From a bacterium (GTDB taxonomy: Bacteria; SAR324; NAC60-12), in NCBI GenBank assembly GCA_965205865.1, contig CBDBHR010000028.1, positions 277,600 to 341,599 of the forward strand: 64,000 bases of DNA, given 5' to 3'. The position numbers and the translations under genes are program-made. Below, in pieces: positions 11,143 through 63,931 of this stretch; position 1 is the stretch's first letter; the number at the start of each line of letters is the position of its first letter. The notes beneath the pieces are model-generated. The model searched no databases. It was not told where the DNA came from and was given only the letters and a program-made list of their open reading frames with translations.

Positions 11143-12801
11143 TCATTCTCGTTGTGGACCGGGCATGGGCCCAGGTTTGTAATGTCGCAATAAATAATGC
11201 AGCGTGTTACCAAGCATTTTACGACTGAACCCGGGGAAAACGAGTTTAGAAACCGATCCCAGCCGTAATGCTTCTTCCGGATTGAGCAGTTCTCTTTCGT
11301 AGCGTCTTGTCAACTCGGCCATAGCCTCGTCCTGCGGGACAGTAGCCTCTGCTTCGTCTTTTCCCTCTGCAAGGGCCTGCTGAAAGCGTTTTTGAATTTC
11401 ACGAATTTCATTTTTGTAAATGAATTGCCTGCCGGCAGGACCCATCACTGCAATACGCGCAGTGGGCAAGGCAAAAACAAAATCCGCGCCGACGTGGTAA
11501 CTGTTCCAGGACACATAGGCACCGCCAAAAGCATTGCGGACGATCAAAGTCAGGCGCGGGACTCTCAAATCCACGATGGCGTCCATCAGTTCCCGACCGG
11601 CCTGAATAATTCCCATCCGCTCTTGCTCGGAACCGGGAGCATAGCCCACTACGTCTTCTAAAAAAATAATGGGGATGTTGTAAATGTTGCAGAACCTTAT
11701 GAACCGGGAAGCTTTCTGCGCTGCGTGCGCATCGATATTTCCCGATTGGTAGGCGCTGTTATTGGCTACAATCCCTACCACGTGCCCGCCTATGCGGCCA
11801 TAGGCTGTGATCATTTGCAGGGCCCTTGTAGCTTGGATCTCAAAATAATCGCCATAATCCACCAGTTGCTGTAAAAAAAGGCGCATGTCAAAGGGAGTAT
11901 TGAACCCGGTGACAGGGTGCGTGAAATATTTCTCCAGAAGCACGGCTTCTTCTTCAACATAGCCATTCATGGAAGCCGATGAGGATTTATAGGGTGCCAA
12001 TGACTGGTTGTTGTCAGGAAGATAGCTCAGCAAATGCAAAGCCGTTCGTAGGGCATCGACCTCATCTGCCACTCTGAGATCCGCCACCCCGCTTTGCGTA
12101 TGAACACCCGGACCACCCAAATCATCCGGAGTGATCTCTTCCCCCATTGCTTCTTTGACAACGCCCGGGCCGGTCAATCCCATGAAAGTGTCCTCAGGCT
12201 GGATCACATAGGAGCCTTGCCGGGGCAGGTAAGATCCTCCTCCCGCATTGTAACCGAACATCAACATGATAGAAGGGACAATCCCGCTTATTTTTCTGAT
12301 GGCGGCAAAGGCTTCTCCATAACCATCCAAACCTCCCACGCCGTCGGGGACAAAAGCGCCTGCAGAGTCGTTTATACCGATCAGAGGAATGCCATGTTCT
12401 CCTGCCATCAATATCTGCCGGGCGAGTTTAGCCCCATTGCTGGCGTTCATCGAGCCGGCCCGCAGAGTAAAGTCATGCCCGTAAACTGCCACGTCCCGAC
12501 CCTCGATGTTGAGAATTCCCGTCACAATCGAAGCCCCGTCGAGTTCCCGGCCCCAGTTCTCATAAGTGATGTGGGGGGCTTCCTCTGTCAGCACGCGGAT
12601 CCTTTCCCAGACTGTCATCCTGTTTTTTTGATGCTGAGTCCTTACTCGCGCCAGTCCTCCACCCTGACGGGGTTTCTCCCTCAGTTCTTTTCCTCTCTCG
12701 AGCATCTCATGGTAGATTTTGGCACGGGGATTGAAATCACTTGAAGAGGGGAGGTGAGTTTGTAAAGCAAAAGGATTTTTCAGTTGCACTGTTTTTTTCA
12801 T
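11143..12801 (-). CDS. Acyl-CoA carboxylase carboxyltransferase subunit (propionyl-CoA carboxylase beta / methylmalonyl-CoA decarboxylase alpha family)
   Basis: 552 aa with both carboxyltransferase halves. Motifs include ...[24 protein letters not shown]... and ...[32 protein letters not shown]... Confidence 0.75.
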
Positions 12802-25707: not shown

Positions 25708-26447
25708 TAAGGAACAAACCTTAAATAACCTGTAATTATTCCAATGGTGTGAGCAAAATTGGGGGACATGTACACCGCTGCGCATCCCAACTCTACTGTT
25801 TTATGCCTGCTGTTACGTGTCCCCTAATTTTGCGTATCCATACTTCTAACTTATTTAAATTTCATTCCTAAAGGACTGGTTTTCCAATGGGGAGTGACCC
25901 GTTGGCAATCAAGGGACGGATTCCGTTTTACAGGATACGTTCATAGGATTTTTTGGCGGAATCCGGACTTCTCTCGAATTCGTCAGCCGGGTTTTGTTCC
26001 GGACTAAAGTTCCGTTCCCAGGGCAATTCATGGGTGTAAAGATAAACTATGGCTAATAGCAAAAGAGCAAAAAAGATGAGAATCGCCTTTTTTTCCTTAG
26101 GATCAAAATTATCCAGCATAAACTCCCTATATTTTCCTGCACCTTCAAAATCTAATGAATAATGCGTCTCTGAAAGACGATCTTCAGTTTAGCAGAGGAC
26201 TTACCACATGTCAGTATTTAACCTCCCGCAATCGCATACTCCGCAGTCTTGCCGCTTGTTTTCGGACAGATGTGGATTGGGCTGCCGTTCAATCTCACTT
26301 GTCCGGGGTAATGTAAACTTCGTATTTCTCTGATATACTGTGAAAAACCGGAACTTGGAAACCCGGGCCAAGTATCAAACTTGCGACGCCATGTCAATGT
26401 CGGCAGTTTGAATGCATCCTTCAATCGGATTGATAAGGAGATCTTAT

Positions 26448-27773
26448 ATGGAGCCGATTTTTGTTGTAGATAACGAACCAGCCATTTGCGAAACCGTGAA
26501 AGGGGTTTTGCAGGACGAGGGCTATTCGGCGATTTCTTGCCCGGACGCTGATACTTTGTTCAAAAAAATAGATTCCCAACACCCTTCCCTGGTCTTGCTC
26601 GATATTTGGTTGCCTGGCACGGACGGGATGGAAATTCTACGCCAATTCAAAACCACTTTTCCTCACATTCCCGTGATCATGATGAGTGGGCATGCCGGGA
26701 TTGACGCAGCAGTCAATGCCATCAAGAGAGGGGCTTTTGATTTCCTGGAAAAACCACTCACCCTGGAAGTGTTGTTGGAGAAAGTCGCAGCGGCACTCAC
26801 TATCCAACCTCAGAAAGAAACCGGCAAACTACCATCCGAGTCACAAACTGCAAGGATGACCGGCCAAGCAATCTATGCAGACGCACTTTCCCTTGTAGAA
26901 TCCAAGCAACCACAGCGTACTTTGAAAAAAAACGTAGTGCTCAATGGTCATGGATTGTTGACTGGTCGCAATACAGGTATCATTGTCAGTCCGCTTGGCG
27001 TCAATGAGGGGATCGTTTTCCAAACCTTGGATGGCTACGCAATCCCGGCCCACATCACGTCCCTGGAAAATTTCTCCCAGATTGATACAACCTCCCGGAC
27101 CTTTACCGTTAATTCCACGGTCTTGGCTCGTAACGGACATCGAGTACGAACGGTAGAACATTTGATGGGCGCCTTGTCAATGTTTGGTCTGACTAATGTT
27201 CAAATTAAGACAGATGAGGAAATTCCCAATATAGATAGTTCTGCAGAAGGATTTTGCCAGTTGATCCAAGAAGCTGGAGTTGTTGATCAATCGGCCCATG
27301 CAAAATGCATTGTAGTGCATGAAAAATTGGGGGTCGGCATTGAAAACCTAAAAGAAAAGCACTTGTTTGTGGAACCCTTTGATGGCTTTGAAATCCAAAT
27401 GCGCGTCAACTACCCTCCTCCCATTCGTGTGCAATCCTTTACTTTCAATGGCAAGCAGCATTCTTTTGAGGAGGAAATCGCACCCGCCCGCACATTCAAC
27501 ACCTTTGAAAACATTGACATGGCTCAAAAAATAGGAAAGATCGGAAGCGGATATTTGAATTCCCACATCATTATGCATGATGGCAAAGTGATCAACACGA
27601 AACTGCGATATCCCGATGAGTTTGTGCGGCATAAAATTTTGGATTTGATTGGAGACCTCTACCTCATCGGCTTTCCTATCCAAGGTCGTTTTATTGCCAA
27701 CATGACCTCCCACAGTTACAACCATTCATTGATAAAAAAAATACACGTGGCTCTTATGGGTAACTCTTCATGA
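26448..27773 (+). CDS. lpxC: Response-regulator receiver domain fused to UDP-3-O-acyl-N-acetylglucosamine deacetylase (REC-LpxC)
   Basis: AAGGAG RBS lies 8 nt upstream of the ATG at 26448. REC domain aa 1-120 has phosphoacceptor Asp in LVLLDIWLPGTDG, Ser in MMSGHAG and Lys in LEKPL; the acidic pair is D-N-E. A 50-aa linker follows. The C-terminal 280 aa are full-length LpxC (PQRTLKK..., TVEHLMGAL, ARTFNTFENI, FVRHKILDLIGDLYLIG, TSHSYNHSL) with all Zn ligands and catalytic residues present. Confidence 0.8.
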   Translation: MEPIFVVDNEPAICETVKGVLQDEGYSAISCPDADTLFKKIDSQHPSLVLLDIWLPGTDGMEILRQFKTTFPHIPVIMMSGHAGIDAAVNAIKRGAFDFLEKPLTLEVLLEKVAAALTIQPQKETGKLPSESQTARMTGQAIYADALSLVESKQPQRTLKKNVVLNGHGLLTGRNTGIIVSPLGVNEGIVFQTLDGYAIPAHITSLENFSQIDTTSRTFTVNSTVLARNGHRVRTVEHLMGALSMFGLTNVQIKTDEEIPNIDSSAEGFCQLIQEAGVVDQSAHAKCIVVHEKLGVGIENLKEKHLFVEPFDGFEIQMRVNYPPPIRVQSFTFNGKQHSFEEEIAPARTFNTFENIDMAQKIGKIGSGYLNSHIIMHDGKVINTKLRYPDEFVRHKILDLIGDLYLIGFPIQGRFIANMTSHSYNHSLIKKIHVALMGNSS

Positions 27774-28219: not shown

Positions 28220-28385
28220 CCCCATGCAGGCTCTCCCAACCATTATCGAGGGCCAATTTGCCGCTCTTGACGCAACTCACATTTATCCTGCAAAGTGGTG
28301 TCATTAAATTATGATTGATATTGAACTTTATTTGCCTGGAATGGTATATTCATAAGACTTTCAATCATCTTCGAGGTGGTGTTCC

Positions 28386-31300
28386 ATGGAAAATCGGTCT
28401 TTGTTTTTACAAGCAGAAGCCATGTCTAAAGACCTCTCTTTGCTTCCTGAAGAGAGGCTCCCTTTTTTTGATGAGTCCTCGCTACTTGGACTTGTTTCCC
28501 AAGAAGACATTAAAAAAAACATTGACCGCTTGCGGCGACTGGACGTCGACGAATACATTCGGCAGACGGTTCTTCCTACGGAGAATCCTAAACGCCGTAG
28601 TGCGCCGGAAGTGATTAAAAATCTGCGCGGCAAGTTGATCAAAGAGGAATTAGATGGCCCACTTTACGTGGCGGAGATTGAATTTTTTACTAACAATCGA
28701 CTGCGACGTTTTGGCGTAATTGCGCAAAATCGCAAAAATCAGGCAGGTGTTTGGTACCCCCAGCATCATCTGAAAGCAGCAGAGTACGCTCGATTTTTTG
28801 CATCTCACGGCATGCCGCTCATTACATTCATGGACACCCCCGGTGCAGCAGCGGATACGGAAGCCAACCTGCGCAATCAGTCCCATAGCATCTCCTTTTT
28901 CATTGCCGAAATGGCCAACCTCGAAATTCCGACACTGGGGATCGTATATGGACAAGGCTATAGCGGTGGCGCCATTCCTCTGGCCACTACCAATATCCTC
29001 TTGTCAGTGAGAGATGGGGTCTTCAACACCATTTATCCGAAAGGATTGAGCAACATTGCCCGCAAGTACAACTTATCCTGGGAGGAATGTGCCAAGTATA
29101 TTGGGGTTTCCGCCTTTGAATTGAATGCGGCAGGTTATTTTGACGGGATCATCGATTACACTCCGGAAGAGCCTCATCTGCTCGATAATTTGCAAAATGC
29201 GATTTTGAGTGCCGTTGAGTGTATTGAAGACAACTCTAAAAAGCTCTTGAAAAGTCACAACCTGTTTTTTTGGGAACATTACCAGGAAAGTTTGAATCAT
29301 TACCTGAATCCTTCAGAGATGTTGATTGAGGATAATATTCTGACGGACAAGACCCCCACTGGGATTCTCAACATATTTGGCGATGTCAATCGTTTTTTGC
29401 GTTACTTGAAGCTCCGCCAAAAAATCACAAGTCAATCCGTACTTCATTATGCCAGGCTCAGTACGATGCCGCAAGGCCAACTCCAGGAACGATTAGCAAG
29501 AGAACAGCGCGAAAAATTTCAAAACTGGCTCAAATCCCCTGTGGAACTGCGTTACCATGACAATTTGTTCAGGAAATATAAACGTTTCAGAGAAGCCTGT
29601 CAAAATCGGGAAAATCAACGGAGGAGGTTGGTGACTTTTTTCATTGGGGATCCTAAAGAAAGGTTTGAAACAGCAACTAAAGAATTGACCTCCGAGGTGC
29701 TTTTGTTCCTTTATAATTACTGGAAGGAAAACGCCATTGAGAATCTCACCCAGTTGTATGAATACCTCAAGTATTTCAAATCGACCGTTACCTTGCCAGA
29801 TCAGAATGTGACGTTGTTGGAAGCATTGCAAAATGAGCATCTTTGCCACAGTTTTCAAAGAAATTTTCAAAACATCATTTTGTTTGATCATTTATATGAT
29901 GGCGTGATGAATAACCTGACGATGATTGCAGGAGAATTGAATGGCACCAACCAGATTTCCCGGAAATCAGTGGAAAAATTATTTGAAAGTTCCTTCGATT
30001 CAGCTATTCAGGAATTTGAAAACCACTCTCCGGATCTTCAAACAACCGATGCCAAAGAACGTTTTTTCAAATGGCTGCAGCTTTTCATCACTCAAAAAAA
30101 CTGCGACGAAATCATGCATAATATCAGTGATTGGAAACAGCGTGCTTTTCCCCGTCTCAGTCAGCCCTTGTTCGGTTTGGTCCGCTATTATTTTGCTACC
30201 TTACTTCCGGCCTTGAATACCGCGGAGTCGGATAGCGATTCACGGAAGCAAAAAAAATTCAGCGGCAAGATCACTCCCCGCAATATCGGCATCAAGGACT
30301 TTTGGAACCGCCTGGACCGAGCATACAAAGATCTCCTCATTCAAGACCTGCTCCGGGAGTACAAAAAAAAGCCAATTACCCCAAAGCGCATCATTGATTA
30401 TTTTTTTGAAGACTTCGAAGAATTGTACCACGACCGCATTACCGTCGATCCGGTAAAATTTCCCGGGTTTCGCCAGTCGGTAGAGCAAGCTTTGCAGAAA
30501 GGAGTGACCCCATGTGGTATCATCACCGGTTTGGCAACGTTCGCGGATGAAAATCAGCGCAACCGGGTCGGGCTGGCCATAAGCAATACCAAATTTCAAG
30601 CAGGAGCCTTCGACATGGCAAGCAGTGAGAAAATTTGTCAACTGCTGGCCGAATGCACAAAGCATAAACTGCCACTCATTATGTTTATCTCCGCAGGAGG
30701 GATGCAAACTAAAGAAGGGGCGGGGGCGCTTTTTTCCATGCCGGTGTTGAATGACCGCATGACTCGCTTCATCAAAGACAATGAATTGCCTGTGATTTGT
30801 TTCGGATTCCGGGATTGTATGGGAGGCGCCCAAGCCAGCTTCGTCACCCATCGCCTGGTCAAAACCTATTACTTTTCAGGGACCATCATGTCATTTGCCG
30901 GGCAATTGGTCGTGGAGAGTCACTTGCCCATGAATGCGATTTTGTCCAACTACCTTTCCAACACGCCGGGAAGTATGGAAGGTCTCGTTCACAATCCTTT
31001 TGATGAAGCCATCGATGCTAAACTGAAAGAAGCGGATCCTCAAATCCCTCTGGCCCAATTGACGGTGAGGGATGTGATTTCCAAAATTATGGCCGGCGAG
31101 TATCGTCCGTATTTCAAACCCGAAGAAAACGCCATTGCTCAAATTTTCGAAGAAAAACTTCACTTGGGCCCCATTCAACGAATATTGATTCATGCGCGTG
31201 GCTGCACTGCAACACGCTTGATTTATGCAGCTCATGAGGCGGGTCTGGAAGTGGTACTTGTACAATCCGACCCGGATATGGATAGCTATCCGGCCAATTT

Positions 31301-32930
31301 ATTAAAAAAGAAAGATCGCCTTGTTTGCCTTGGAGGCAACACTGCGCAGGAGAGTTATCTCAATGCGGGAAGCATTATCCTGATTGCTGAACAGGAAGGA
31401 GCGGACGCGCTCCATCCCGGCATTGGTTTTCTTTCAGAATCATCCCAGTATGCCAGGATTTGCCGGGAACATGGACTCAATTTTATTGGCCCCAGCGCTC
31501 ATAGTATGGATTTGATGGGTAATAAATCCAATGCGTTGGCGACGGCAAAACGTCTGAAGATCCCAGTCGTTCCCGGAAGTGCAGGGGCCCTTGCAGATCC
31601 CGTTCAGGCAGAAACGGTTGCCCGGGAAATCGGATTTCCTGTCTTGATCAAAGCCACCCACGGTGGCGGAGGTAAAGGAATTCGCGTAGTTGAAGAATCG
31701 GAGTCTCTGGTCGATGTCTTTTCCCAAATGTCCCAGGAAGCCCTGAACGCTTTTGGCAATGGGGATTTGTATCTGGAAAAATATATTATTTCAATGCGAC
31801 ATATCGAAGTCCAAATCTTGAGAGACAGCCATGGCAACACCAAAATACTGGGCATGAGGGATTGCACGGTACAGCGCAACTATCAAAAATTGATTGAAGA
31901 GTCGATTGGAGAGCATTTTCCAAAGTTAATCGTCAAGCAACTCTACCGTTATACTGAATCAATCATCAATGAAATCGATTACCTTGGGGCAGGCACAGTC
32001 GAATTCATTTATGATCGCCTCCATCAGAAAATCTATTTTATGGAAATGAACACCCGCTTGCAGGTGGAACATCCTGTTACCGAAATGGTATCTGGCCTGG
32101 ATCTCGTTCAAAAGCAATTGGAAATCGCCGAAGGCGGCAATATCGAGGACTTGTCCGTTGAACTCAACGGACATGCTATGGAATTACGGGTCAATGCGGA
32201 AAAAATTGAAATCAACCCGGATGGCACGCTTGTTTTTCTTCCCGACCCGGGAACTATCACAAAAGTAGAATTACCGGCATTCCAAAATATCCGCTTCGTT
32301 TCCGCCGTAAAAAGCGAAAGCGCGGTTCCTCCCTATTACGACGGCCTGATTGCCCAAATCATTGCTCATGGGCCAACCCGTGGAGAAGTGATTCAAACAC
32401 TGTTGGATTATCTGAAAGAAATCCGCATCACTGGCATCTCCACAAACCTGGCGTTGGCTGAGGCGATTTTGGAAAATGAACTTTTCCAGTCAGGAGATTA
32501 CGATACCGGATTTCTGAAAACCTTCCTACAACAAATCGATATCCACCAATTGATCCGTGCCACTCAAAATCATGCCGGGGACACGGGGGCGGCAATCGAC
32601 CAGAAGACCATTGCCATTCCGGACTCAAGGGAACTCAAGGTGCTTTCTCCCCAAACCGGCGCTTTCTATCGCTCTTCCTCTCCGAGTGACCCGGTATTTG
32701 TCGAAGAAGGACTACAAATTGGTAGCGGGCAAACCCTTTGTCTGCTGGAATCGATGAAAGTCTTCAACGAACTAAGGTTGAAAGCATACAAGGGAGGAGA
32801 TGGAGAACTGCTCTATCCGGAGGACACTTTTTACCGGATCAAAAAAATTATTCCCGAGGACAAGCAAACCGTCAGTCGAGGGGATCTATTATTTGTCATT
32901 GAACCGGAAGAAACCCTCCAATCTGCCTAG
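28386..32930 (+). CDS. Single-chain multidomain carboxylase: carboxyltransferase alpha - unknown 370-aa region - carboxyltransferase beta - biotin carboxylase - BCCP (AccADC-like)
   Basis: - aa 60-320: AccA-like (...PLITFMDTPGAAAD...GIVYGQGYSGGAIPLA...).
- aa 330-690: no recognisable domain.
- aa 700-880: AccD-like (...FISAGGMQTKEGAGALFSM...).
- aa 900-1350: ATP-grasp biotin carboxylase (...VLIKATHGGGGKGIRVV..., ...EMNTRLQVEHPVTEMVSGLDLVQ...).
- C-terminal biotinyl domain with LLESMKVFNEL. Confidence 0.8.
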   Translation: MENRSLFLQAEAMSKDLSLLPEERLPFFDESSLLGLVSQEDIKKNIDRLRRLDVDEYIRQTVLPTENPKRRSAPEVIKNLRGKLIKEELDGPLYVAEIEFFTNNRLRRFGVIAQNRKNQAGVWYPQHHLKAAEYARFFASHGMPLITFMDTPGAAADTEANLRNQSHSISFFIAEMANLEIPTLGIVYGQGYSGGAIPLATTNILLSVRDGVFNTIYPKGLSNIARKYNLSWEECAKYIGVSAFELNAAGYFDGIIDYTPEEPHLLDNLQNAILSAVECIEDNSKKLLKSHNLFFWEHYQESLNHYLNPSEMLIEDNILTDKTPTGILNIFGDVNRFLRYLKLRQKITSQSVLHYARLSTMPQGQLQERLAREQREKFQNWLKSPVELRYHDNLFRKYKRFREACQNRENQRRRLVTFFIGDPKERFETATKELTSEVLLFLYNYWKENAIENLTQLYEYLKYFKSTVTLPDQNVTLLEALQNEHLCHSFQRNFQNIILFDHLYDGVMNNLTMIAGELNGTNQISRKSVEKLFESSFDSAIQEFENHSPDLQTTDAKERFFKWLQLFITQKNCDEIMHNISDWKQRAFPRLSQPLFGLVRYYFATLLPALNTAESDSDSRKQKKFSGKITPRNIGIKDFWNRLDRAYKDLLIQDLLREYKKKPITPKRIIDYFFEDFEELYHDRITVDPVKFPGFRQSVEQALQKGVTPCGIITGLATFADENQRNRVGLAISNTKFQAGAFDMASSEKICQLLAECTKHKLPLIMFISAGGMQTKEGAGALFSMPVLNDRMTRFIKDNELPVICFGFRDCMGGAQASFVTHRLVKTYYFSGTIMSFAGQLVVESHLPMNAILSNYLSNTPGSMEGLVHNPFDEAIDAKLKEADPQIPLAQLTVRDVISKIMAGEYRPYFKPEENAIAQIFEEKLHLGPIQRILIHARGCTATRLIYAAHEAGLEVVLVQSDPDMDSYPANLLKKKDRLVCLGGNTAQESYLNAGSIILIAEQEGADALHPGIGFLSESSQYARICREHGLNFIGPSAHSMDLMGNKSNALATAKRLKIPVVPGSAGALADPVQAETVAREIGFPVLIKATHGGGGKGIRVVEESESLVDVFSQMSQEALNAFGNGDLYLEKYIISMRHIEVQILRDSHGNTKILGMRDCTVQRNYQKLIEESIGEHFPKLIVKQLYRYTESIINEIDYLGAGTVEFIYDRLHQKIYFMEMNTRLQVEHPVTEMVSGLDLVQKQLEIAEGGNIEDLSVELNGHAMELRVNAEKIEINPDGTLVFLPDPGTITKVELPAFQNIRFVSAVKSESAVPPYYDGLIAQIIAHGPTRGEVIQTLLDYLKEIRITGISTNLALAEAILENELFQSGDYDTGFLKTFLQQIDIHQLIRATQNHAGDTGAAIDQKTIAIPDSRELKVLSPQTGAFYRSSSPSDPVFVEEGLQIGSGQTLCLLESMKVFNELRLKAYKGGDGELLYPEDTFYRIKKIIPEDKQTVSRGDLLFVIEPEETLQSA

Positions 32931-35048: not shown

Positions 35049-35702
35049 ATGGATGCAAAAACCTTTGTGCAGCAGTTGGAACAGCAAAACAACGTACTAT
35101 TGGACAAATTGAAAAAACAGCCGCCGTTGGGAGAGGGAGATGACTTAAACATCAATCAATTATTGAAAATGGCTTTGAAAAACGAAATCGAAGCCACCGA
35201 ACTGGCAGCTTACTGGGTCCACTCGACTCCCGAGGTAGAAGTCAAACTGGGATTTTCACGACAAGTGGGAGATGAAGCGCGACATTATCGAATCATTGCC
35301 GAGCGTCTGCAGGAGCTTGGGGAAGATTTGAGGGATTTCGACCCACTTGCGGCAGGTTACAGTCCCTTGTTTGAATATCTCAAGACCCTGGAAAATACGG
35401 TGGAGCGCGTAGCAGCAGGGCAATTTACCCGAGAAGCCATTGCCTTGATCAAAAACGAGCAATTCATCGAATGCTGCCACGAGGCAGGAGATTCGGAAAC
35501 CGCCCGATGTTATGAGGAAATCATACAACCTGACGAAACCTTTCACCATCAATTGGGTAAAAAGATTTTGGAACAATACGCCAATACCGATGCCTTACAG
35601 TTTCAAGCCAGACAAGCTGCCCAAAAGACCTTGGAGCTTGCTGAAGAACTTCAGGGGATCGTATTCAATAAAATGGGAATCCACCATGCGCCAGGATGTT
35701 GA
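35049..35702 (+). CDS. Ferritin-like di-iron four-helix-bundle protein (family uncertain)
   Basis: Paired E...ExxH-type motifs (EIEATELAAYW, GDEARHY, DETFHHQ), typical of ferritin-like/rubrerythrin-like oxidoreductases. Confidence 0.4.
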   Translation: MDAKTFVQQLEQQNNVLLDKLKKQPPLGEGDDLNINQLLKMALKNEIEATELAAYWVHSTPEVEVKLGFSRQVGDEARHYRIIAERLQELGEDLRDFDPLAAGYSPLFEYLKTLENTVERVAAGQFTREAIALIKNEQFIECCHEAGDSETARCYEEIIQPDETFHHQLGKKILEQYANTDALQFQARQAAQKTLELAEELQGIVFNKMGIHHAPGC

Positions 35703-40120: not shown

Positions 40121-40513
40121 TTGCATGAATTTTGCATTTTGTTTTTGCGAAAGGAGTCGCCTGCGCAAATTCATGGAAATGCCAGACTAACCATAAAGCA
40201 AAGAGAAGCAGTTCGTCGCTTACATCATGAGGATCGTCGTACGATAGCATCTCTTTCAAGAGACTTTGGAGTCTCGCCTGATACGATCCTGAAATGGGTT
40301 CACCGAGAATCCTCTTTTGATCGCAAGATGCCTTCTTCAAAACGTAAAAGAATCGTTGAGGAAGACTACCGTCAGGCTATTATTGAGTATCGTAAGCAGC
40401 ACCCCAATCATGGTAAACTTCGTATTGCCCGGGAACTTCGGGAAGCCTTTCCTCATGCAAGACCCAGTACTATTTTGAGGGTTCTTCAACAAGCCGGTTT
40501 AATCGTTGCTATA
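40121..40513 (+). pseudogene. IS481-family transposase N-terminal (HTH) fragment
   Basis: ...NARLTIKQREAVRRLHHEDRRTIASLSRDFGVSPDTILKWVHR... is the typical IS481 N-terminal HTH region. The DDE catalytic core is absent. The reading frame runs on into the next gene. Confidence 0.5.
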
Positions 40514-40564
40514 TCCTATTCAAATCATTTAGTTCGTTATCTCGAACTCAGCTTAATAAAAGCA

Positions 40565-41278
40565 ATGATCTTCATTTCTTTACCACAATTTGGGCATAAC
40601 AGGGGATCCGCCTCGAAGATTTTATGGATCAGCCGTGCCCGGCTCGCGCTTGCCTTAGTCCTTCCTTTGATCTTTTTTACCGGGTCCGGGGTAGCGGAGG
40701 CCGAGAGGGTCGAGGTGCTGCGCGAGGGCGACATCGCCGGCTGGGAAGAGAAGACGTTCAGCGGCAAGACTTTGTACGAGACCTTTCGTCTGGAGGACAG
40801 GTCGGTGGTGCGCGCGACGAGCCGTGGCACCGCCTCGGGGCTCTACTTCAGGCTTCGAATCGACCTCGACAAGACCCCGTTCCTGCGCTGGAGCTGGCGG
40901 GTCGATGGGACGCTCGGCGATATCGACGAGCGAACGAAGGCCGGCGACGACTACAGCGCGAGGGTTTACGTGATTCGCTCGCACCCGGTATTTCTCTGGC
41001 GGACGCGCGCCGTGAACTACGTCTGGGCAAGCGCGCGGACCGCGGGCGAGACGTGGCCGAATGCGTACACGGATCGTGCGCAGCACGTTGCGGTCCGCTC
41101 CGGCGACACGCAGGCCGGCCAGTGGGTGGCCGAACGCCGTGACGTGCGGGCCGATTTCCGGGAGCTGTTCGGGGAGTCCGTCCGATACGTCGACGCGGTC
41201 GCGATCATGACCGATACCGACGACACCGGCGGTACCGCGGTGGCGTACTACGGAGACATCACGTTCTCGAGCGAGTGA
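40565..41278 (+). CDS. DUF3047 family secreted protein (GC-rich, likely horizontally acquired)
   Basis: Signal-peptide-like RARLALALVLPLIFFTGSGVA. The body (...WEEKTFSGKTLYETFRLEDRSVVRATSRGTASGLYFRLRIDLDKTPFLRWSWRVDGTL...DDYSARVYV...) fits DUF3047. GC is about 65% against about 47% for the core. Long ORFs in other frames here (40624-41142, 40655-41086) are GC artefacts. Confidence 0.55.
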   Translation: MIFISLPQFGHNRGSASKILWISRARLALALVLPLIFFTGSGVAEAERVEVLREGDIAGWEEKTFSGKTLYETFRLEDRSVVRATSRGTASGLYFRLRIDLDKTPFLRWSWRVDGTLGDIDERTKAGDDYSARVYVIRSHPVFLWRTRAVNYVWASARTAGETWPNAYTDRAQHVAVRSGDTQAGQWVAERRDVRADFRELFGESVRYVDAVAIMTDTDDTGGTAVAYYGDITFSSE

Positions 41279-44672: not shown

Positions 44673-45441
44673 GGTCAGGCCGTGCGCCAGGAAAGCTGGC
44701 AAGAAATAGAGAGTGAAAGTCTCTTACTCGGTAAGGCAGTAACGACCCGCCGAGTCCCCGAGTCATGAGTGGTTATTCGCAAGGATAGGCGCTAAGCGTT
44801 GACAGGGGAGAACATAGGCTCGGTATTGAGCTCCGAAATCATAGTTTCAGGTGCTGACCTTGTAGTCTGGTGGGGAAGGCAACATCAACCGAAGGCGTTA
44901 GCGTGAGTCCCGGTCGAGCCTGGCGGAGTCAAAGACCCGGTGCATGTGTGGAAGTTTCTTGATCGGAACCTGGGAGATCCTGAAGACGACTGTCAACATT
45001 CTATTGGTAGTCGGATCGGGAAAATTAATAAATAACCCCGATATCTACGTCTTCAGGAAGTCGGACAAGTTCGTAGTAGCGATGAAGCGGCGAACAATGA
45101 GATCATTTGTAGAGAGTAATAATGCAAAGGAAATCAACGGAGCCTGTGGAGCAAAGGGACTTGGCTGAGAGGAATTCTGCTTGCCCTCCTGTGTTCGGAA
45201 CTCAGAGGCCGGTAAAATCAGAGAGCGGTTTAAGCAGGGTGCGCCAAACGGCAACGTCTGAGCGTCTGACTCGAAGCAGGAGCCGGATGCGTTAGCAGCG
45301 CATGTCCGGATCTGTACCGGAGGAATGACGAAAGGTGGCTGGAAACCACTATAAGTCAGTTCTTTACGGTGACTTTGATTAAATGAAAAGGGAGCAAAAA
45401 AACTAGACTCGTTCCTAATCAAACAATCAAAGGCCTGACCC
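44673..45441 (+). mobile_element. ~770-bp non-coding group-II-intron-like repeat, copy A
   Basis: Starts GGTCAGGCC|GUGCGCCAGGAAAGCUGGC (GUGCG, then a GAAA-tetraloop hairpin). Near the 3' end is GAGCCGGAUGCG-uuagca-GCGCAUGUCCGGAUCU, which is domain-V-like (AGC triad, 2-nt bulge). Ends ...AAAGGCCUGACC. The 9-nt termini are inverted repeats. Copies A, D and E are about 95% identical. Confidence 0.5.
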
Positions 45442-48483: not shown

Positions 48484-48611
48484 AGGATTCAATTCATTGA
48501 AGCTTACACGAATGCGATTCTGATTGAGGATCATTCAATTGATAATTACGGAAATTTTGTTACGACTCCAGAAAAAAAGAGTCGTTATGATGCAAAATTA
48601 AAGAAAGGGAG

Positions 48612-50292
48612 TCAGGCCGTGCGCCAGGAAAGCTGGCAAGAAATAGAGAGTGAAAGTCTCTTACTCGGTAAGGCAGTAACGACCCGCCGAGTCCCCGAGT
48701 CATGAGTGGTTATTCGCAAGGATAGGCGCTAAGCGTTGACAGGGGAGAACATAGGCTCGGTATTGAGCTCCGAAATCATAGTTTCAGGCGCTGACCTTGT
48801 GGTCTGGTGGGGAAGGCAATATCAACCGAAGGCGTTAGCGTGAGTCCCGGCTGAGCCTGGCGGAGTCAAAGACCCGGTGCATGTGTGGAAGTTTCTTGAT
48901 CGGAACCTGGGAGATCCTGAAGACGACTGTCAACATTCTATTGGTAGTCGGATCGGGAAAATTAATAAATAACCCCGATATCTACGTCTTCAGGAAGTCG
49001 GACGAGTTCGTAGTGCGCACTGGGCAGCGCATGATTCAGGTGGGTTCAAGTTCCACTCAGCCTGAGATCCCAGGCTGATATCCAAAAGCGGGGGTAATGC
49101 CTCGCTGGCCGGAATGTTTACCAGGGCGCCATCCTGGGCGCTTTAAGCACAATGGGAGGTCGAAAGGGCCAAATGCACCGAAGTGAACTTCCGGAGGACA
49201 GGGTGTCCACCGTGAGGTGGAATCTGAAGGGTTTGCGGAGAATCACCGGGTCGTAGTCAAGGAGGCTACTCCAGAGACGAACCGGTCGGCCAACAGCAGG
49301 GAATGGTTGAGCTTGCACTATGATGGCGAAAGCAGTTGGATTCCCCCCTGCAATACCAAGGTGTGTGCGGACGACACGGTGAGGAAGAATCATGAGTGAC
49401 CCCAGGAGGACTCAGGGCGTTCTTAGGTGGCACTAGGATAAGGGACCCTATAAGCGAAAGCGAAGTGGAAACCGAAGCGTGTTGAGTAGTCGGACCATCG
49501 AATAGTACCTGAAGCGTAGTGAGAGCTACGTGACCGAGGGATCGGCAGCAGAGTGAGCTGGGGAAGGCGATGGGCAGAGAAGGTTGGAATGAGAAAGGAA
49601 GTCAGATGAGTAAGGACAGTGAGGTGGAAAGTTCGGTAAGTGAAAGACCCAGAACTCATGGCCCGAGGAGACTGGCTGACTGGATCAATCTAACGGGAGC
49701 AAAGAAGGTTCACTCCTTAGTGGACAAGATTTACAAGAAGCTCTCCCCGAAACAAGATTATATGGGGAGTATCGGTTAGTAAATCTGATCTCACTAATTC
49801 CTTCGATTGGTCCCTTCGGCAAACGGACTTCTCTGTGAAAGCCGGATGCGGGAAAACTGCACGTCCGGTTTGGGCGGCGGACGGTGGCTAGCGGAAACGC
49901 GCCTCCTCCGACCCGACAGCGATGAAGCGGCGAACAATGAGATCATTTGTAGAGAGTAACAACGCAAAGGAAATCAACGGAGCCTGTGGAGCAAAGGGAC
50001 TTGGCTGAGAGGAATTCTGCTTGCCTTCCTGTGTTCGGAACTCAGAGGCCGGTAAAATCAGAGAGCGGTTTAAGCAGGGTGCGCCAAACGGCGAATCCGA
50101 ATCAACGTTTGAGCGTCTGACTCGAAGCAGGAGCCGGATGCGTTAGCAGCGCACGTCCGGATCTGTACCGGAGGAATGACGAAAGGTGGCTGGAAACCAC
50201 TATAAGTCAGTTCTTTACGGTGACTTTGATTAAATGAAAAGGGAGCAAAAAAACTAGACTCGTTCTTAATCAAATAATCAAAGGCCTGACCC
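48612..50292 (+). mobile_element. 770-bp repeat copy B/C interrupted by a nested ~905-bp group II intron
   Basis: 48612-49012 matches the 5' 400 bp of copy A. 49921-50292 matches the 3' 370 bp. The intervening 49013-49917 is unique to this copy. Confidence 0.6.
49013..49917 (+). ncRNA. Group II intron (ORF-degenerate) inserted into repeat copy B
   Basis: Starts GUGCGCAC. Near the 3' end is AAGCCGGAUGCGG-gaaaa-CUGCAC-GUCCGGUUU. This gives a domain V with AGC triad, AC bulge and G-U wobble at the triad G, close to the consensus GAGCCGUAUGCGAUGAAAGUCGCACGUACGGUUC. A domain-VI-like helix with a bulged A follows. An internal 69-aa ORF (49570-49779, ...RRLADWINLTGAKKVHSLVDKIYKK...) resembles the N-terminus of intron-encoded reverse transcriptases. 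Boundaries are uncertain to about 5 nt. Confidence 0.6.
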
Positions 50293-50456: not shown

Positions 50457-50590
50457 GTCCGGTCACTCTACAATAAAATACTGAACAATACGAGTCATTT
50501 CTTTATCCTGTTATTCAGCATCTTGTCCTTGTTCAATCGAAGTTGATGCAATCTTAGAGATAGTCAGGCAATGATTACGACCTCTAGCTA

Positions 50591-52460
50591 GACCCTAGCC
50601 GAAAAGGGTTTCGAGAAATAGTAAATGTAACCAATTTGATTCTATTTGATTCTCTATTTGATTCAATATGACGAGAATAACGATTTATTTTGTTTTTTAT
50701 TCGCCCACATGAAACAGTTTTTATAGGGAAAAAATCTTTTTTTGGACATACTTTCCTCGCCCCTGCTCATATTTCACACTTCCCCCATTGAATATTCAGG
50801 CCGCTTGTTTGAGTTGTCTTTTTTTCAACTCAATCATTTTGCAAAAATTATAGGTTAAGAGCTTTTTCCAGCAACTCTGCCCGAACGTTTTCAATCCCTC
50901 TGCGCATAACTTGTCCGAAATGGAAACGATGCTTAAGATGAAACATCAACGACTCTGCAGCAGATCTTCCATTTCGTGATTCCAAATAGATTTCACTTTC
51001 CCATTCTTCAATCGGGGTCATCTTTTTTCCCAAACGCCCCACTAATACTAAAAACCTTAACGCCTTTGCCCATCCACTTTTCTCTGATCGCCTGATTGGC
51101 ATATCCATCATCAAGGCTCACTTCAGAGGGAATGGTGATGGTGCATCGCAAATGTTCAACAAGGGCAGGGTCGAGTTGCCCTGAATCAGCAGCATGGCCC
51201 TCCGGAGTAATTAACACGGAAATAAAACCATTTCCGCTCCTTCCTAATTGAGGCTTATATCCGATAAGCGCTTCTCGATCTCTTTTGAATATAAGCCGAG
51301 CTCTGATCGGAAAGACTCAATACTTTCTCAGTCGAAGGAACCTTCTTTTCTTCAAAAACTCTTTGATGACAGTAGATGATTCCGTTGCAAATTAGAAATA
51401 TCTTCATTCATCATTTCAATGAGGCGAATAACGCGTTTTCCGAGAAGGGGGGAGAAGAGCTTTTTGAGGCACGGTAATAAGGACAGTTTGCGATTTCTTT
51501 TAAAAATTTCCCAAAGCGCTATTGAGCTTTCTCAATAGCGGTCATTTGAAATGTTTTTAAAAGCTTCGTTTTACTGTCCTTTTTACCGTGTCTCAAAAGC
51601 CATCATCCCCCCTTAGAAAAGCTTATTCATCTCCTTGATGAGGAAATCAAAATTTCTTTCACTGATCTCAGCGATTCCAAATGTATCAAGGGAACGCCCT
51701 CGATGGTAGCTTCGCTCCGATCGAGACGAGTCATATTCGAGGGAATCGAGTAGGCCAAGCTGATATTTCCTTTTACAGAGGTGCTATCCAGTTTTTAATA
51801 TCAAAATCGTCCAACTCTTCATCGAGAACCATTCTGAATTCAGAGCAATCGAAAATAAACTGTTGAACTCTCGTTGATGACAGCATTGACCATTATCTGA
51901 AGGAGCCTTGTACTCGATCCCGGCATTGCCAATCCACGGTTGAGCAAAAGCAGATGCAAAGTGTGATTGACTCTGAAAGAATTATTTGGGCCGTTTGGGA
52001 TTTGATACTTCCTAAATGATCCCCGAATCATGATAAAAAGGTAAACTAAAAAAGCCGAATCCGAGGACAGATCTATTTCCAGTCCTGAGTTCTTCGGCTT
52101 CAATTCCTCATCTTCCATTACGGGAAGATGAGGAAGCCATGGATTCCGGGCTTCCTGCCAGTTTATCCTCTAAACGCTCTTTCTTTTTATTTCTTGCGTA
52201 TTTCTCCAAATCCTGTTCAATTTTGTCCAATATCTCCGGCTCTCGCTCAGACAATTGATCAAGTTCTGATAAGAAATTTTCAAATTCTGTATCAGGAGCG
52301 CTTAAAATAAGATGTTTTTCTGCTCGAATGAATGGTTTCATTTTGGGTGCCATAATTCTTAATATTGAAGTTATTCACAGTCATTTCAATGAATTATGGC
52401 ACTTTCAATAACCTCAAGTTTAAAGATATAATTCTAAAAAATACCTTTTCGGCTAGGATC
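50591..52460 (-). mobile_element. IS copy 1 (same family as 59323-61154), transposase pseudogenised
   Basis: Same TIRs (GACCCTAGCCGAAAAGG ... CCTTTTCGGCTAGGATC). TAGCTA is present on both flanks, consistent with a 6-bp TSD. The transposase frame is broken into at least 4 pieces (ORFs 50848-51114, 51008-51217, 51840-52118, 52108-52353) by indels. Confidence 0.7.
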
Positions 52461-52835
52461 TAGCTAAGTAATCCCGTAGAACTTTATCACAATATCACGC
52501 AATTTTCTGTGAATTGTTCCCAAGTATTAAGAAAAATGTAGGATCCCAGTCATTTCTTTACGATCTGGCACATATATTGCCTTGTTGACAACTCCTGTAT
52601 AATATTCTGCATTTGTAAACCCTCAAAAGGATAAAATATAAGGATCACAAAAAACTATAAGGGGTGACATGACAGAAAAAAAAATTACAAAAATTAAAAT
52701 TCATAATATGCCATTCGGAGGATTTTGGATTGATCCCAAAGACATCATCTTAAGTGATGAAGGTCAAAAAATAATCAAGCAAATAGCAAAAATATCTATT
52801 AAAAAAACTAAAGATAAATCTGAAGATTAAAACAA

Positions 52836-54728: not shown

Positions 54729-55292
54729 GTGATGGAAGCCATGCTCATTGATCATCAACGTGAAAAATTGATTAATCTAATCATATACTTTGCTACCCAT
54801 ACTAAACGATTTCATAAAGTAAAGTTATTCAAACTTCTATATTTTTTAGATTTTGAACATTATTCTTTAACAGGCCGAAATGTCACTGGATTAGATTACT
54901 ATGCTTGGGATAATGGGCCATGTCCAAAAGATCTACATGAAGAAATTGATGATCCTCGATCAGATATGAAAGAGAGTATCACATTTAGTTCAATTTCATA
55001 CAAGAATGGAGATAGGTTAGATATCAAGCCACTTAAAAAATTTGACCCAAAACATTTCTCAAAGAGAGAGCTTCGCATTTTAGAAGGACTTGCAGAAGAA
55101 TATAAAAATACCTTAGCAAAAGATATGATTGAAGAGACTCACTTAGAGAATCTTCCTTGGCATCAAATTTATAATGTGCAGAAAAATAAATATGCGCATA
55201 TCCCATATGAACTTACACTCAAAAGGCAAGAACAAGAGGAGATGAAACAATATATCGAGGGAACCCGTGATTTTTGGCAGGGATATGAATGA
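54729..55292 (+). CDS. Panacea-domain (DUF4065, SocA-like) putative antitoxin
   Basis: ...KVKLFKLLYFLDFEHYSLTGRNVTGLDYYAWDNGPCPKDLHEEI... matches the K.LYF.D...........G......Y.AW..GPV core of the Panacea domain. Confidence 0.6.
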   Translation: MMEAMLIDHQREKLINLIIYFATHTKRFHKVKLFKLLYFLDFEHYSLTGRNVTGLDYYAWDNGPCPKDLHEEIDDPRSDMKESITFSSISYKNGDRLDIKPLKKFDPKHFSKRELRILEGLAEEYKNTLAKDMIEETHLENLPWHQIYNVQKNKYAHIPYELTLKRQEQEEMKQYIEGTRDFWQGYE

Positions 55293-55705: not shown

Positions 55706-55918
55706 ACGGATGTTTTCTTCATTTTTTGTCATCCTGTGGGAACCGAATGATCTTCTTGATTCCCATGAGTTTCTTGCTTAGGTAGCCCCCTTAGCTCAGA
55801 ATGACAGGTTTTTTGAAAAGTGAAATTTAAACCCGTTCAGAGTATAATCTTGAACAGTAATTTGAAATGTAATCAGAACAAAACGCTTCATCTGACTTAC
55901 ACCAAGAATATAGAAAGG

Positions 55919-56698
55919 GGTCAGGCTGTGCGCCAGGAAAGCTGGCAAGAAATAGAGAGTGAAAGTCTCTTACTCGGTAAGGCAGTAACGACCCGCCGAG
56001 TCCCCGAGTCATGAGTGGTTATTCGCAAGGATAGGCGCTAAGCGTTGACAGGGGAGAACATAGGCTCGGTATTGAGCTCCGAAATCATAGTTTCAAGTGC
56101 TGACCTTGTAGTCTGGTGGGGAAGGCAACATCAACCGAAGGCGTTAGCGTGAGTCCCGGTCGAGCCTGGCGGAGTCAAAGACCCGGCGCATGTGTGGAAG
56201 TTTCTTGATCGGAACCTGGGAGATCCTGAAGACGACTGTCAACATTCTATTGGTAGTCGGATCGGGAAAATTAATAAATAACCCCGATATCTACGTCTTC
56301 AGGAAGTCGGACAAGTTCGTAGTAGCGATGAAGCGGCGAACAATGAGATCATTTGTAGAGAGTAACAATGCAAAGGAAATCAACGGAGCCTGTGGAGCAA
56401 AGGGACTTGGCTGAGAGGAATTCTGCTTGCCCTCCTGTGTTCGGAACTCAGAGGCCGGTAAAATCAGAGAGCGGTTCAAGCAGGGTGCGCCAAACGGCAA
56501 TCCGAATCAACGTTTGAGCGTCTGACTCGAAGCAGGAGCCGGATGCGTTAGCAGCGCACGTCCGGATCTGTACCGGAGGAATGACGAAAGGTGGCTGGAA
56601 ACCACTATAAATCAGTTCTTTACGGTGACTTTGATTAAATGAAAAGGGAGCAAAAAACTGGACTCGTTCCTAATCAAATAATTAAAGGCCTGACCCCT
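55919..56698 (+). mobile_element. ~770-bp group-II-intron-like repeat, copy D
   Basis: Full-length copy, same orientation. It ends 28 bp upstream of the start codon of the 56727 lipoprotein gene. The 12-bp CTGACCCCTTTT is tandemly duplicated at the 3' junction. Confidence 0.5.
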
Positions 56699-58095: not shown

Positions 58096-59330
58096 ATGAG
58101 AATCCGTCAGATTACGAGCATCACGATCTTGTTGCTGTTGGCTGCAACGGCTTCTAATCTCGTTTGGGCTCTCACCCCCACTTCATCAATGGAGTTGCCC
58201 CTGACGCAGGGGGAGCAGGCCGCAAGACTCTGGCGGATTGCCAGTGCGGAGGTCGCTCGCAAGCTCTATCCGACTTTCGGTAGAGACGATCGAACCAAAG
58301 TTTTATTACCAGCGCAACTATCGCCTCCTGTGGATTGAAGCAACCCTCAATCAACGGATACTGTTGGCAGAAAAGATTGGTGTTACAAGGTGCCGCCAGG
58401 TTCGCTGCGGAACGAGGTTGGATTAAGATACTCGGTTTTCGGTATCGTGGCATCCAACAAGGGCCAGACTCCGTGTATTGGGATCAACGATCAGGTCGTC
58501 TCCGCGTACTGGAAGCGAAAGGAGGAACTGCCAAACCAATAAAGGCTTTCAATAGCTTGCAGGGTACGAATAAAAACGCGATCAGGTCTGCTAGATTTGT
58601 TCTTCGGTCATTAAAAGCAACCCTTATGGAAAAACATGCGGCTGCACTTGTAATTGTGGCTGCTCAGCAGGGTCGACTCGTTACAGGTGTAATAAATACT
58701 CTTCACAAGTTGGGAACTCCGGACACCCCCAAGCTGGCAGGCAATTGGGATTACGATTATGTAGGAAGGGAAGCAAGCACGATCGAGCAGAAATTAATCC
58801 GTAATAAACCCGAGGTTCGATCAGTCTTTCGGCATGCGCATAAGGAGCAATCATTTGCCATGCTGAAATACTGGGAAACCCGAAGACCGGCGAACATTGG
58901 ATTTGCTAGGAATGCGTACCAGCAGTCACTGATTGCCTGGTCCAAGTTCAACAATCCTCCCCTGAAAGGAAACGTTTTACCCTACATAAGGACTGGCTCG
59001 TCGATTCACAGAATAACACAGTCAACTACTCAACCAGGTATTTTGAGACTTTCCAAGGAGGGAGTTAGTAAGTTTGCCGGCAGATTGATTCTACCGGTCA
59101 TCCTTGGTGTGGAGGGATTACAATTTGCCATAGCATATCACCAATACGGCTTGGGTCGTATCAGTCAGCGTGATTTCTACCGTCGCACTACCGGACCCGC
59201 GATCGTCGCGGTTTTCACAGTCGGCGGAGCTATAGTTGGTGGGATTATTGGAATGCAAGGCGGAGGGATCACGGCAATCCCAGTTGCCTACACTGGTGCC
59301 AAAATAGGCGCGATCCTAGCTAGACCCTAG
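58096..59330 (+). pseudogene. Secreted protein with C-terminal glycine-zipper membrane segment, likely disrupted (frame changes near 58240-58340) and 3'-truncated by IS
   Basis: The signal peptide ORF (58096-58338), a third-frame ORF (58238-58426) and the main ORF (58335-59330) each continue plausible protein sequence across overlaps. The last two codons and the stop (AGA CCC TAG) lie inside the IS left end. The C-terminus GAIVGGIIGMQGGGITAIPVAYTGAKIGAIL is a Gly-zipper. Confidence 0.35.
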
Positions 59331-61154: not shown

Positions 61155-61160
61155 CTAGCT

Positions 61161-62994: not shown

Positions 62995-63164
62995 GAGCTA
63001 TTCCTGTTCATTTTGCAGCCGATTATATGTTGGATTGGCATTACCGGGAATTCGATGAACATCAACGTCTGGTCGTTAATGCGGCAGTTGAAAAACACTA
63101 TGGCTTGAACCCCGGATCATAGTTCAACACTGACTCGTGATCATACCTTTACCCTGAAACGGGG

Positions 63165-63931
63165 ACAGGCCGTGCGCCAGGAAAGCTGGCAAGAAATAGA
63201 GAGTGAAAGTCTCTTACTCGGTAAGGCAGTAACGACCCGCCGAGTCCCCGAGTCATGAGTGGTTATTCGCAAGGATAGGCGCTAAGCGTTGACAGGGGAG
63301 AACATAGGCTCGGTATTGAGCTCCGAAATCATAGTTTCAGGCGCTGACCTTGTGGTCTGGTGGGGAAGGCAATATCAACCGAAGGCGTTAGCGTGAGTCT
63401 CGGCTGAGCCTGGCGCAGTCAAAGACCCGGTGCATGTGTGGAAGTTTCTTGATCGGAACCTGGGAGATCCTGAAGACGACTGTCAACATTCTATTGGTAG
63501 TCGGATCGGGAAAATTAATAAATAACCCCGATATCTACGTCTTCAGGAAGTCGGACAAGTTCGTAGTAGCGATGAAGCGGCGAACAATGAGATCATTTGC
63601 AGAGAGTAACAATGCAAAGGAAATCAACGGAGCCTGTGGAGCAAAAGGACTTGGCTGAGAGGAATTCTGCTTGCCCTCCTGTGTTCGGAACTCAGAGGCC
63701 GGTAAAATCAGAGAGCGGTTTAAGCAGGGTGCGCCAAACGGCAACGTTTGAGCGTCTGACTCGAAGCAGGAGCCGGATGCGTTAGCAGCGCACGTCCGGA
63801 TCTGTACCGGAGGAATGACGAAAGGTGGCTGGAAACCACTATAAGTCAGTTTTTTACGGTGACTTTGATTAAATGAAAAGGGAGCAAAAAAATTGGACTC
63901 GTTCCTAATCAAATAATCAATGGCCTGACCC
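63165..63931 (+). mobile_element. ~770-bp group-II-intron-like repeat, copy E
   Basis: Full-length copy with the same orientation and termini (..ACAGGCC|GUGCGCC ... AAUGGCCUGACC). Confidence 0.5.

Follow-up and report, generated by a model that had tools for sequence, protein, structure and literature searches.

The 64,000-nucleotide stretch considered here (the window; contig CBDBHR010000028.1 of assembly GCA_965205865.1, positions 277,600 to 341,599, from a bacterium placed by GTDB in SAR324, NAC60-12) carries a gene, at 28386..32930 (+), in which the functional units of a bacterial acetyl-CoA carboxylase (ACC) are joined in one chain. The gene is a single unbroken open reading frame (ORF) with an ATG start, encoding 1514 amino acids (aa) plus a stop, and its base composition is uniform and unremarkable along its length. 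An AccA-like carboxyltransferase alpha half (CT-alpha) comes first, followed by a helical module of ~375 aa, an AccD-like CT-beta half, a biotin carboxylase (BC) and a biotin carboxyl carrier protein (BCCP). An earlier reading, made from the letters of the DNA and here called the sequence-only reading, had proposed that a single polypeptide carries four ACC functions, arranged as CT-alpha, unassigned module, CT-beta, BC and BCCP, and Pfam and NCBIfam scans reproduce that arrangement. The same domain scans bear out its remark that the order is unlike that of eukaryotic ACC, with CT first and BC-BCCP last. The protein is a divergent member of the already characterised AccS/AccADCB single-chain acetyl-CoA carboxylases, and the kind itself is not new. 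The assignment of the whole gene to the AccS type draws on the ORF, on an end-to-end alignment with PDB 9kkm_A and on more than 100 full-length relatives.

The domain boundaries can be followed along the forward (+) strand. An N-terminal extension (aa 1-105; 28386..28700) contributes helices and the first strands into the CT-alpha core in an AlphaFold model; 9kkm is aligned from its residue 18, and the family mean identity of the extension is 44%. The CT-alpha half proper, of crotonase fold (aa 106-290; 28701..29255), is matched by Pfam ACCA at aa 114-264 (85 bits) and by NCBIfam AccA_sub NF041504 at aa 112-289 (96 bits). The all-helical middle module (about aa 291-665; 29256..30380) links the alpha half, at its C-terminus, with the N-terminus of the beta half, and neither Pfam nor NCBIfam has a family matching between about aa 290 and 676. 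The CT-beta half (aa 666-870; 30381..30995) is matched weakly by TIGR00515 (AccD), at aa 676-845 with E 1.7e-9. A poorly conserved linker (aa 871-928; 30996..31169; mean identity 36%, pLDDT below 50 at aa 908-930) leads to the BC domain, an ATP-grasp unit (aa 929-1383; 31170..32534) recognised by Pfam Biotin_carb_N, CPSase_L_D2 and Biotin_carb_C. BC is complete over aa 930-1383, scoring 466 bits against the accC model TIGR00514 and about 330-380 bits against BC chains in the PDB. A second, flexible linker (aa 1384-1415; 32535..32630; mean identity 33%) joins BC to the BCCP domain (aa 1416-1514; 32631..32927), which is identified by Pfam Biotin_lipoyl and TIGR00531 (50 bits). The BCCP match in the domain scans covers aa 1395-1466 and holds an E-S-M-K1458 biotinylation motif, in which K1458 (nucleotides 32757-32759) is the predicted biotinyl-lysine. 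Alignment places a family-specific stretch of about 15-20 aa after the E-x-M-K motif.

A PDB sequence search gave one end-to-end match, 9kkm/9w4a, in which aa 5-1509 align with residues 18-1516 (1492 bits, E = 0), and the alignment with 9kkm_A runs through the middle module without a break. The entries are titled 'Acetyl-CoA carboxylase multifunctional enzyme AccADCB' and are 1517 aa long; the 9kkm record describes a cryo-electron microscopy structure of an acetyl-CoA carboxylase holoenzyme dimer of Shewanella oneidensis, mutant E1238A, released 2025-11-19. For aa 1-930, an AlphaFold model (pLDDT 82, pTM 0.79) superposes on 9kkm_A with a TM score of 0.83 and 44% identity over 924 columns, a comparison of a prediction with an experimental structure. 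The next structural matches of that model are stand-alone AccA and AccD chains, each accounting for one half. Compared over 1488 columns, the protein shows 47.6-47.8% identity to its counterparts in Shewanella abyssi and S. algicola. A paper describing the 9kkm structure was not found in the open literature, where the search met only a methods preprint that reuses its map.

The genetics of the family come from S. oneidensis, in which accS encodes a multi-domain ACCase with a domain order unlike that of eukaryotic ACC (Xu et al. 2024, PMC11602165). The protein, AccS, is biotinylated and runs at ~170 kDa; a streptavidin blot of S. oneidensis detected two biotinylated bands, AccS and LiuD. Lowered accS expression causes a growth defect, which either accS or E. 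coli accA+accD+accBC relieves (PMC11602165). This work gives the AccS family genetic evidence of ACC function, and the deposited entry gives it a solved structure. The sequence-only reading had cautioned that fused 'AccADC' proteins were annotated before, and correctly so: 9kkm/9w4a are annotated AccADCB, and accS was described in 2024. It had also treated the insert and the substrate specificity as open. They are less so, since the family has been characterised by accS genetics (PMC11602165) and by a cryo-electron microscopy structure that includes the module.

Of what type are the carboxyltransferase halves? The CT-alpha half scores 63 bits against S. aureus AccA (2f9i_A) versus about 27 bits for PCC-beta, and the CT-beta half scores 59 bits against S. 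aureus AccD (2f9i_B); PccB-type chains reach about 20-27 bits against either half, and the mmdA profile 31 bits on the carboxylase in the NCBIfam scan. Judged by these scores, the halves are of AccA/AccD type and not of PccB type. An identity as a PccB/MmdA-type carboxyltransferase, in which one chain of about 510-550 aa holds the two crotonase domains, is ruled out by the alpha-beta order and the ~375-aa gap between the halves together with the scores (about 27 versus 59-63 bits). The alignment with AccD begins only at S. aureus AccD residue 76, and inspection of aa 560-710 of the carboxylase found no CxxC pairs; we conclude from the two together that the N-terminal zinc ribbon of AccD is absent. 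A canonical heteromeric ACC is likewise ruled out, by the single ORF seen in independent assemblies and by the missing Cys4 zinc ribbon.

Conservation was assessed in an alignment of 30 relatives of 47-88% identity, and the residues expected of a working carboxylase are invariant in it, or nearly so. In CT-alpha these include GYSGGA at aa 191-196 (G194-G195), whose glycines we read as those of a putative oxyanion hole, and in CT-beta GGMQTKEG and C-x-GGAQASF (G813-G814). In BC they are K1047, K1089, E1206, E1220, N1222, R1224, E1228 and R1268, which we take to correspond to E. coli BC K116, K159, E276, E288, N290, R292, E296 and R338, respectively; in BCCP they are E1455, M1457 and K1458 of the E-x-M-K motif. 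In the alignment with 9kkm, E1228 falls exactly on the position altered there (E1238A). Mean identity is 64% for CT-alpha, 66% for CT-beta, 60% for BC, 51% for BCCP, 45% for the insert and 33-36% for the linkers, a gradation that would be expected of a working enzyme on flexible tethers. The conservation also indicates that every module is under strong purifying selection.

The middle module deserves separate comment. That it has no motif in the family libraries was stated by the sequence-only reading and stands; the bounds given there, aa 330-700, shift slightly, to about 291-665, when judged by the AccA/AccD alignments and the model's secondary structure. Nor is the region a known extension of AccA or AccD, a possibility the same reading had named as fatal to its view, as the AccA and AccD alignments end at the module edges. 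Structure prediction, also suggested there, gave an all-helical fold of about 17 helices (pLDDT 79.7). With this model as query, Foldseek against the PDB has 9kkm_A as its sole real match (E 8.9e-19, TM score 0.60, 33% identity); all other matches have E of at least 0.2 and are designed helical repeats and similar. Identity as a known domain was accordingly rejected, Pfam and NCBIfam being empty here and the PDB matches beyond 9kkm helical-repeat noise. An exhaustive HMMER search with the module by itself found 93 proteins among 1.84 billion cluster representatives. In the full-length matches the module always lies at about aa 300-720 of a protein of 1400-1640 aa, and none has it in another architecture; the remaining matches are shorter, 58-1223 aa, and we take them to be fragments. 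An independently occurring protein or domain was therefore also rejected, because every full-length match is a long carboxylase. As far as these searches reach, the module is private to the AccS family, already visible in the deposited 9kkm structure and not borrowed from elsewhere. About 33 of its residues are invariant across lineages in the 30-relative alignment; R339, R344, W381, W446-K447, W583-K584, F639-W640 and F692-P693-G694 are examples of invariant insert positions. Most likely the module is a structural scaffold for the dimeric holoenzyme. We note separately that the Oceanospirillales versions (Thalassolituus, Bacterioplanes), at 1630-1660 aa, are larger by about 110-150 aa. At best, BLASTP aligns only about 70% of the query with them, and the module query matches them in two stretches, which suggests a further insertion in or near the helical module.

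How widespread is this form of the enzyme? In a search of 5.8 billion proteins, more than 100 relatives came up that are full-length, at 1500-1660 aa, with 99-100% query coverage. The closest of them are 98%, 88% and 77% identical and on contigs of up to 4.26 Mb, the 4.26 Mb contig being that of the 88% relative (ENA ERZ25069580, ctg105729_26x_l). The cluster at 90% identity or more has 13 members from independent assemblies, on contigs of up to 1.7 Mb, and 11 of the 13 are intact at 1514 or 1521 aa. In one assembly of that cluster the carboxylase is split into ORFs of 771 and 689 aa, both on a 1,459,088-bp contig; an assembly frameshift is the probable cause. By their source labels, the named relatives belong to SAR324 (the closest named, 76%), 'Deltaproteobacteria bacterium TL4', Lambdaproteobacteria, Planctomycetes, Verrucomicrobia and Lentisphaerae, and some are labelled 'ATP-grasp domain-containing protein' or 'carbamoyl-phosphate synthase large subunit'. 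In a neighbour-joining tree the protein falls in a clade with SAR324-labelled sequences, clearly apart from the clades labelled gammaproteobacterial and PVC-type. A scan of a genome collection was keyed on the generic BC peptides HPGIGFLSE and YFMEMNT, and of its 80 loci, 74 hold plain accC genes or acc operons; the fused-form look-alikes are two Shewanella, two Pseudomonadales, one Desulfuromonadales and one truncated Acidobacteria locus, and no SAR324 genome is among the 80 loci of this BC-peptide-keyed scan.

The published account confines AccS homologues to Shewanella and a few genera of Gammaproteobacteria (PMC11602165). Going by the relatives just described, the family appears far wider across bacterial phyla than published, and this is the sole point at which our analysis goes beyond the literature consulted; a literature search on SAR324 and ACC gave nothing relevant. 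A bolder scenario may be entertained, though we would put it at somewhat less than an even chance. The AccS type may be the sole housekeeping ACC of SAR324, Lambdaproteobacteria and the Planctomycetes-Verrucomicrobia-Lentisphaerae, having arisen once, with the helical scaffold replacing the zinc ribbon, and the gammaproteobacterial copies may have been acquired from among these lineages by horizontal transfer. The wide-distribution part of the scenario is supported by the source labels and the deep split between clades.

The carboxylase begins 166 nucleotides after nusB, on the same strand, and ends 26 nucleotides before a gene for an AI-2E-family permease. Upstream lie genes for a receiver-LpxC fusion, a PDZ protein, a kinase and YicC, with KdtA nearby. 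The 88%-identical relative (locus L081) has the same neighbours: receiver-LpxC fusion, NusB, carboxylase and AI-2E-family permease. This core-gene neighbourhood, with its envelope-lipid flavour, fits a housekeeping role. The divergent LysR regulator AccR, which accompanies the gene in Shewanella and some Gammaproteobacteria but is no property of the enzyme, is absent beside the carboxylase both here and at the locus of the 88% relative. In tblastn searches with each module, neither the 64 kb window nor the syntenic locus of 24.5 kb yielded a second AccA, AccD, BC or BCCP homologue. A possible sigma-70-like promoter, TTGAAC-18-TATATT with an extended TG (28321..28350, +), lies in the 166-nucleotide gap; it is weak and suggestive only, the promoter scan being at background (11 sites versus 8.5 +/- 2.7 expected in shuffles), and a terminator scan gave nothing over background.

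What, then, does the gene do? Very probably it is an AccS orthologue, a single-chain acetyl-CoA carboxylase that supplies malonyl-CoA for fatty-acid synthesis in a lineage nearest SAR324. The BC domain, using ATP and bicarbonate, would carboxylate the biotin on K1458 of BCCP, and BCCP would then swing by way of its flexible linkers to the CT site that the AccA-like and AccD-like halves make up together. There the carboxyl group would be passed to acetyl-CoA, yielding malonyl-CoA for type II fatty-acid synthesis. The helical module would bridge the end of the alpha half and the start of the beta half, in place of the AccD zinc ribbon. In this scheme the acetyl-CoA substrate, the homodimer, the insert's scaffold function and the housekeeping character of the enzyme are what we infer. 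Several points weigh against it. ACC activity and biotinylation are known only for S. oneidensis AccS, which is only about 48% identical, and the role of the insert is judged only from its position and conservation. The BC and CT scores fall under the NCBIfam equivalog cutoffs, as expected of a divergent fused form, so that the substrate assignment rests on orthology. Stand-alone accABCD genes and a specialised role for the fused enzyme are conceivable, the acc search having covered the 64 kb window and the 24.5 kb locus, and the Shewanella-type divergent AccR is not present at this locus.

An enzyme of the same family and fold might act on a different or broader substrate, propionyl-CoA or several short acyl-CoAs. 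It would then serve a chemoautotroph of the SAR324 type in anaplerosis or in assimilating CO2, and not in making fatty acids. The identity of about 48% to the single characterised member, HMM (hidden Markov model) scores that all lie under the equivalog cutoffs, and a clade well apart from that of Shewanella and the Oceanospirillales could each be cited in its favor. The carboxyltransferase itself speaks for acetyl-CoA, however: its halves are of AccA/AccD type (59-63 bits versus about 27 bits for PCC-beta), no other part of the protein is as well conserved (64-66% mean identity), and their active-site motifs are invariant across clades, a conservation that argues for one conserved substrate. 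Moreover, the neighbours are lipid A and housekeeping genes, and a PccB/MmdA-class carboxyltransferase elsewhere in the window is a likelier candidate for other acyl-CoAs. We consider a change of substrate unlikely. A role as an accessory paralogue seems to us a little less probable again. Here the fused enzyme would stand beside canonical accA, accB, accC and accD and make malonyl-CoA for some special use, for instance a secondary metabolite or a particular growth condition. The canonical four-gene ACC is the norm in the Gammaproteobacteria, and the gammaproteobacterial carriers of the fused gene belong to that class. In S. oneidensis, though, the blot shows only AccS and LiuD biotinylated and less AccS impairs growth (PMC11602165), which indicates that the fused enzyme is the housekeeping ACC of that organism. 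In the window the gene sits among core genes such as those for NusB and LpxC, its synteny is conserved, no biosynthetic cluster adjoins it, and the search of the window and of the syntenic locus turned up no other acc homologue.

A more trivial explanation is that separate accA, accD, accC and accB genes were joined by misassembly or by a read-through error. The sequence-only reading had itself named an assembly chimera as what would undo its proposal, and the assembly that has the gene in two ORFs (771 and 689 aa) might seem to lend it substance. We regard it as having almost no chance of being right. Against that one assembly stand the 11 of 13 cluster members that are intact, at 1514 or 1521 aa, in independent assemblies on contigs of up to 1.7 Mb; the more than 100 full-length relatives, spread over several named lineages; the synteny at the 88% relative; the purified and structurally solved 1517-aa Shewanella protein of the same domain order; and the uniform composition over the gene. 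A chimera is excluded by the full-length relatives, the 13-member cluster and that synteny.

The AccS-type carboxylase of the window may now be set beside the known forms of biotin-dependent carboxylase. S. oneidensis AccS is nearly the same length (1517 versus 1514 aa), has the same domain order, is collinear throughout and shares the catalytic and biotinylation residues; the two differ in being about 48% identical, in belonging to different clades (the protein described here being nearest named SAR324 sequences) and in that no divergent accR is found here. Each unit has its homologue in the heteromeric ACC of E. coli and S. aureus (AccA 63, AccD 59 and BC about 330-380 bits). The chemistry is presumably identical, and E. 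coli genes substitute functionally in Shewanella (PMC11602165). Unlike the heteromeric enzyme, ours is one chain, without the zinc ribbon, with a ~375-aa module between the CT halves and with the family-specific BCCP stretch after the MK motif. Eukaryotic single-chain ACC likewise has all activities in one polypeptide and a large non-catalytic region embedded in it. Its order, however, is BC-BCCP-central domain-CT, whereas here CT comes first and BC-BCCP last; its CT, like that of PccB-type enzymes, runs N (beta) then C (alpha), whereas here alpha precedes beta at a distance of about 375 aa; and its non-catalytic region lies between BCCP and CT, whereas here it lies within CT. The eukaryotic central domain is not among the Foldseek PDB matches of the module. 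The reversed order, the different position of the module and a fold shared, among solved structures, only with 9kkm make the fusion look independent of eukaryotic ACC. A further comparison is with the bacterial carboxylase of long-chain acyl-CoA (LCC), which has BC first, CT last and a PccB-type double-crotonase CT. LCC (BC-BT-BCCP-CT) resembles the present protein in being a biotin-dependent carboxylase with all domains fused. PDB 5fif, the CT domain of a single-chain bacterial carboxylase, matches one half structurally at about 20% identity.

Other features of the window merit brief description. The receiver-LpxC fusion upstream of the carboxylase, at 26412-27773 (+), encodes 453 aa, with a response-regulator receiver (aa 16-125, 95 bits) ahead of a complete LpxC deacetylase (aa 168-444, 240 bits), and it is kept in the 88%-identity relative (L081 8075-9397, 440 aa). 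Through such a fusion, a phosphorelay would govern the step that commits the cell to lipid A synthesis. Two DUF genes follow the carboxylase, a few kb further downstream: a DUF455 gene at 35049-35702 (+) and a DUF3047 gene at 40121-41278 (+), the latter with a weak HTH_32 match; a link of either to the carboxylase is not evident. The separate PccB-like carboxyltransferase that the sequence-only reading placed at 11143-12801 (-) is real (Carboxyl_trans, 355 bits). It is a 552-aa protein of the PccB/MmdA class, scoring 351 bits against the mmdA subfamily, far under the 999-bit cutoff, and its gene adjoins those for citrate synthase and GltX, with no BC or BCCP gene beside it.

The last third of the window also holds repeated elements. 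Group II intron RNA (RF02005, 158-165 bits) occurs in four copies, all on the forward strand (+), at 44674-45252, 48600-50100, 55903-56505 and 63156-63742. One copy is about 1.5 kb long, with domain 5/6 (RF00029, 49837-49917). The other three, at about 580 nucleotides, are internally deleted: each consists of about 410 nucleotides from the 5' end and about 175 from the 3' end, and they are 97-98.5% identical. The short copies look like miniature ORF-less derivatives that dispersed locally. An insertion sequence, about 1.85 kb in length, is present in three copies, at 59316-61161, 61155-63000 and 50584-52466. The two abutting copies are 99.7% identical, each with a 509-aa DDE_Tnp_1 transposase, and the third is 94.5% identical. 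The region from 50 to 63 kb is low in G+C (0.33-0.41), contains an ORF at 54729-55292 resembling a SocA/Panacea antitoxin, and is probably a mobile-element-rich island.

What do these observations mean for the family? They extend AccS-type ACC to a marine lineage nearest SAR324, an addition of modest importance that brings no new mechanism. For annotation, genes of this kind are better named single-chain ACC (AccS/AccADCB). The roughly 33 invariant positions of the module offer targets for probing what the module does. And in metabolic reconstruction, a genome in which stand-alone accA-D are missing need not be that of a fatty-acid auxotroph.

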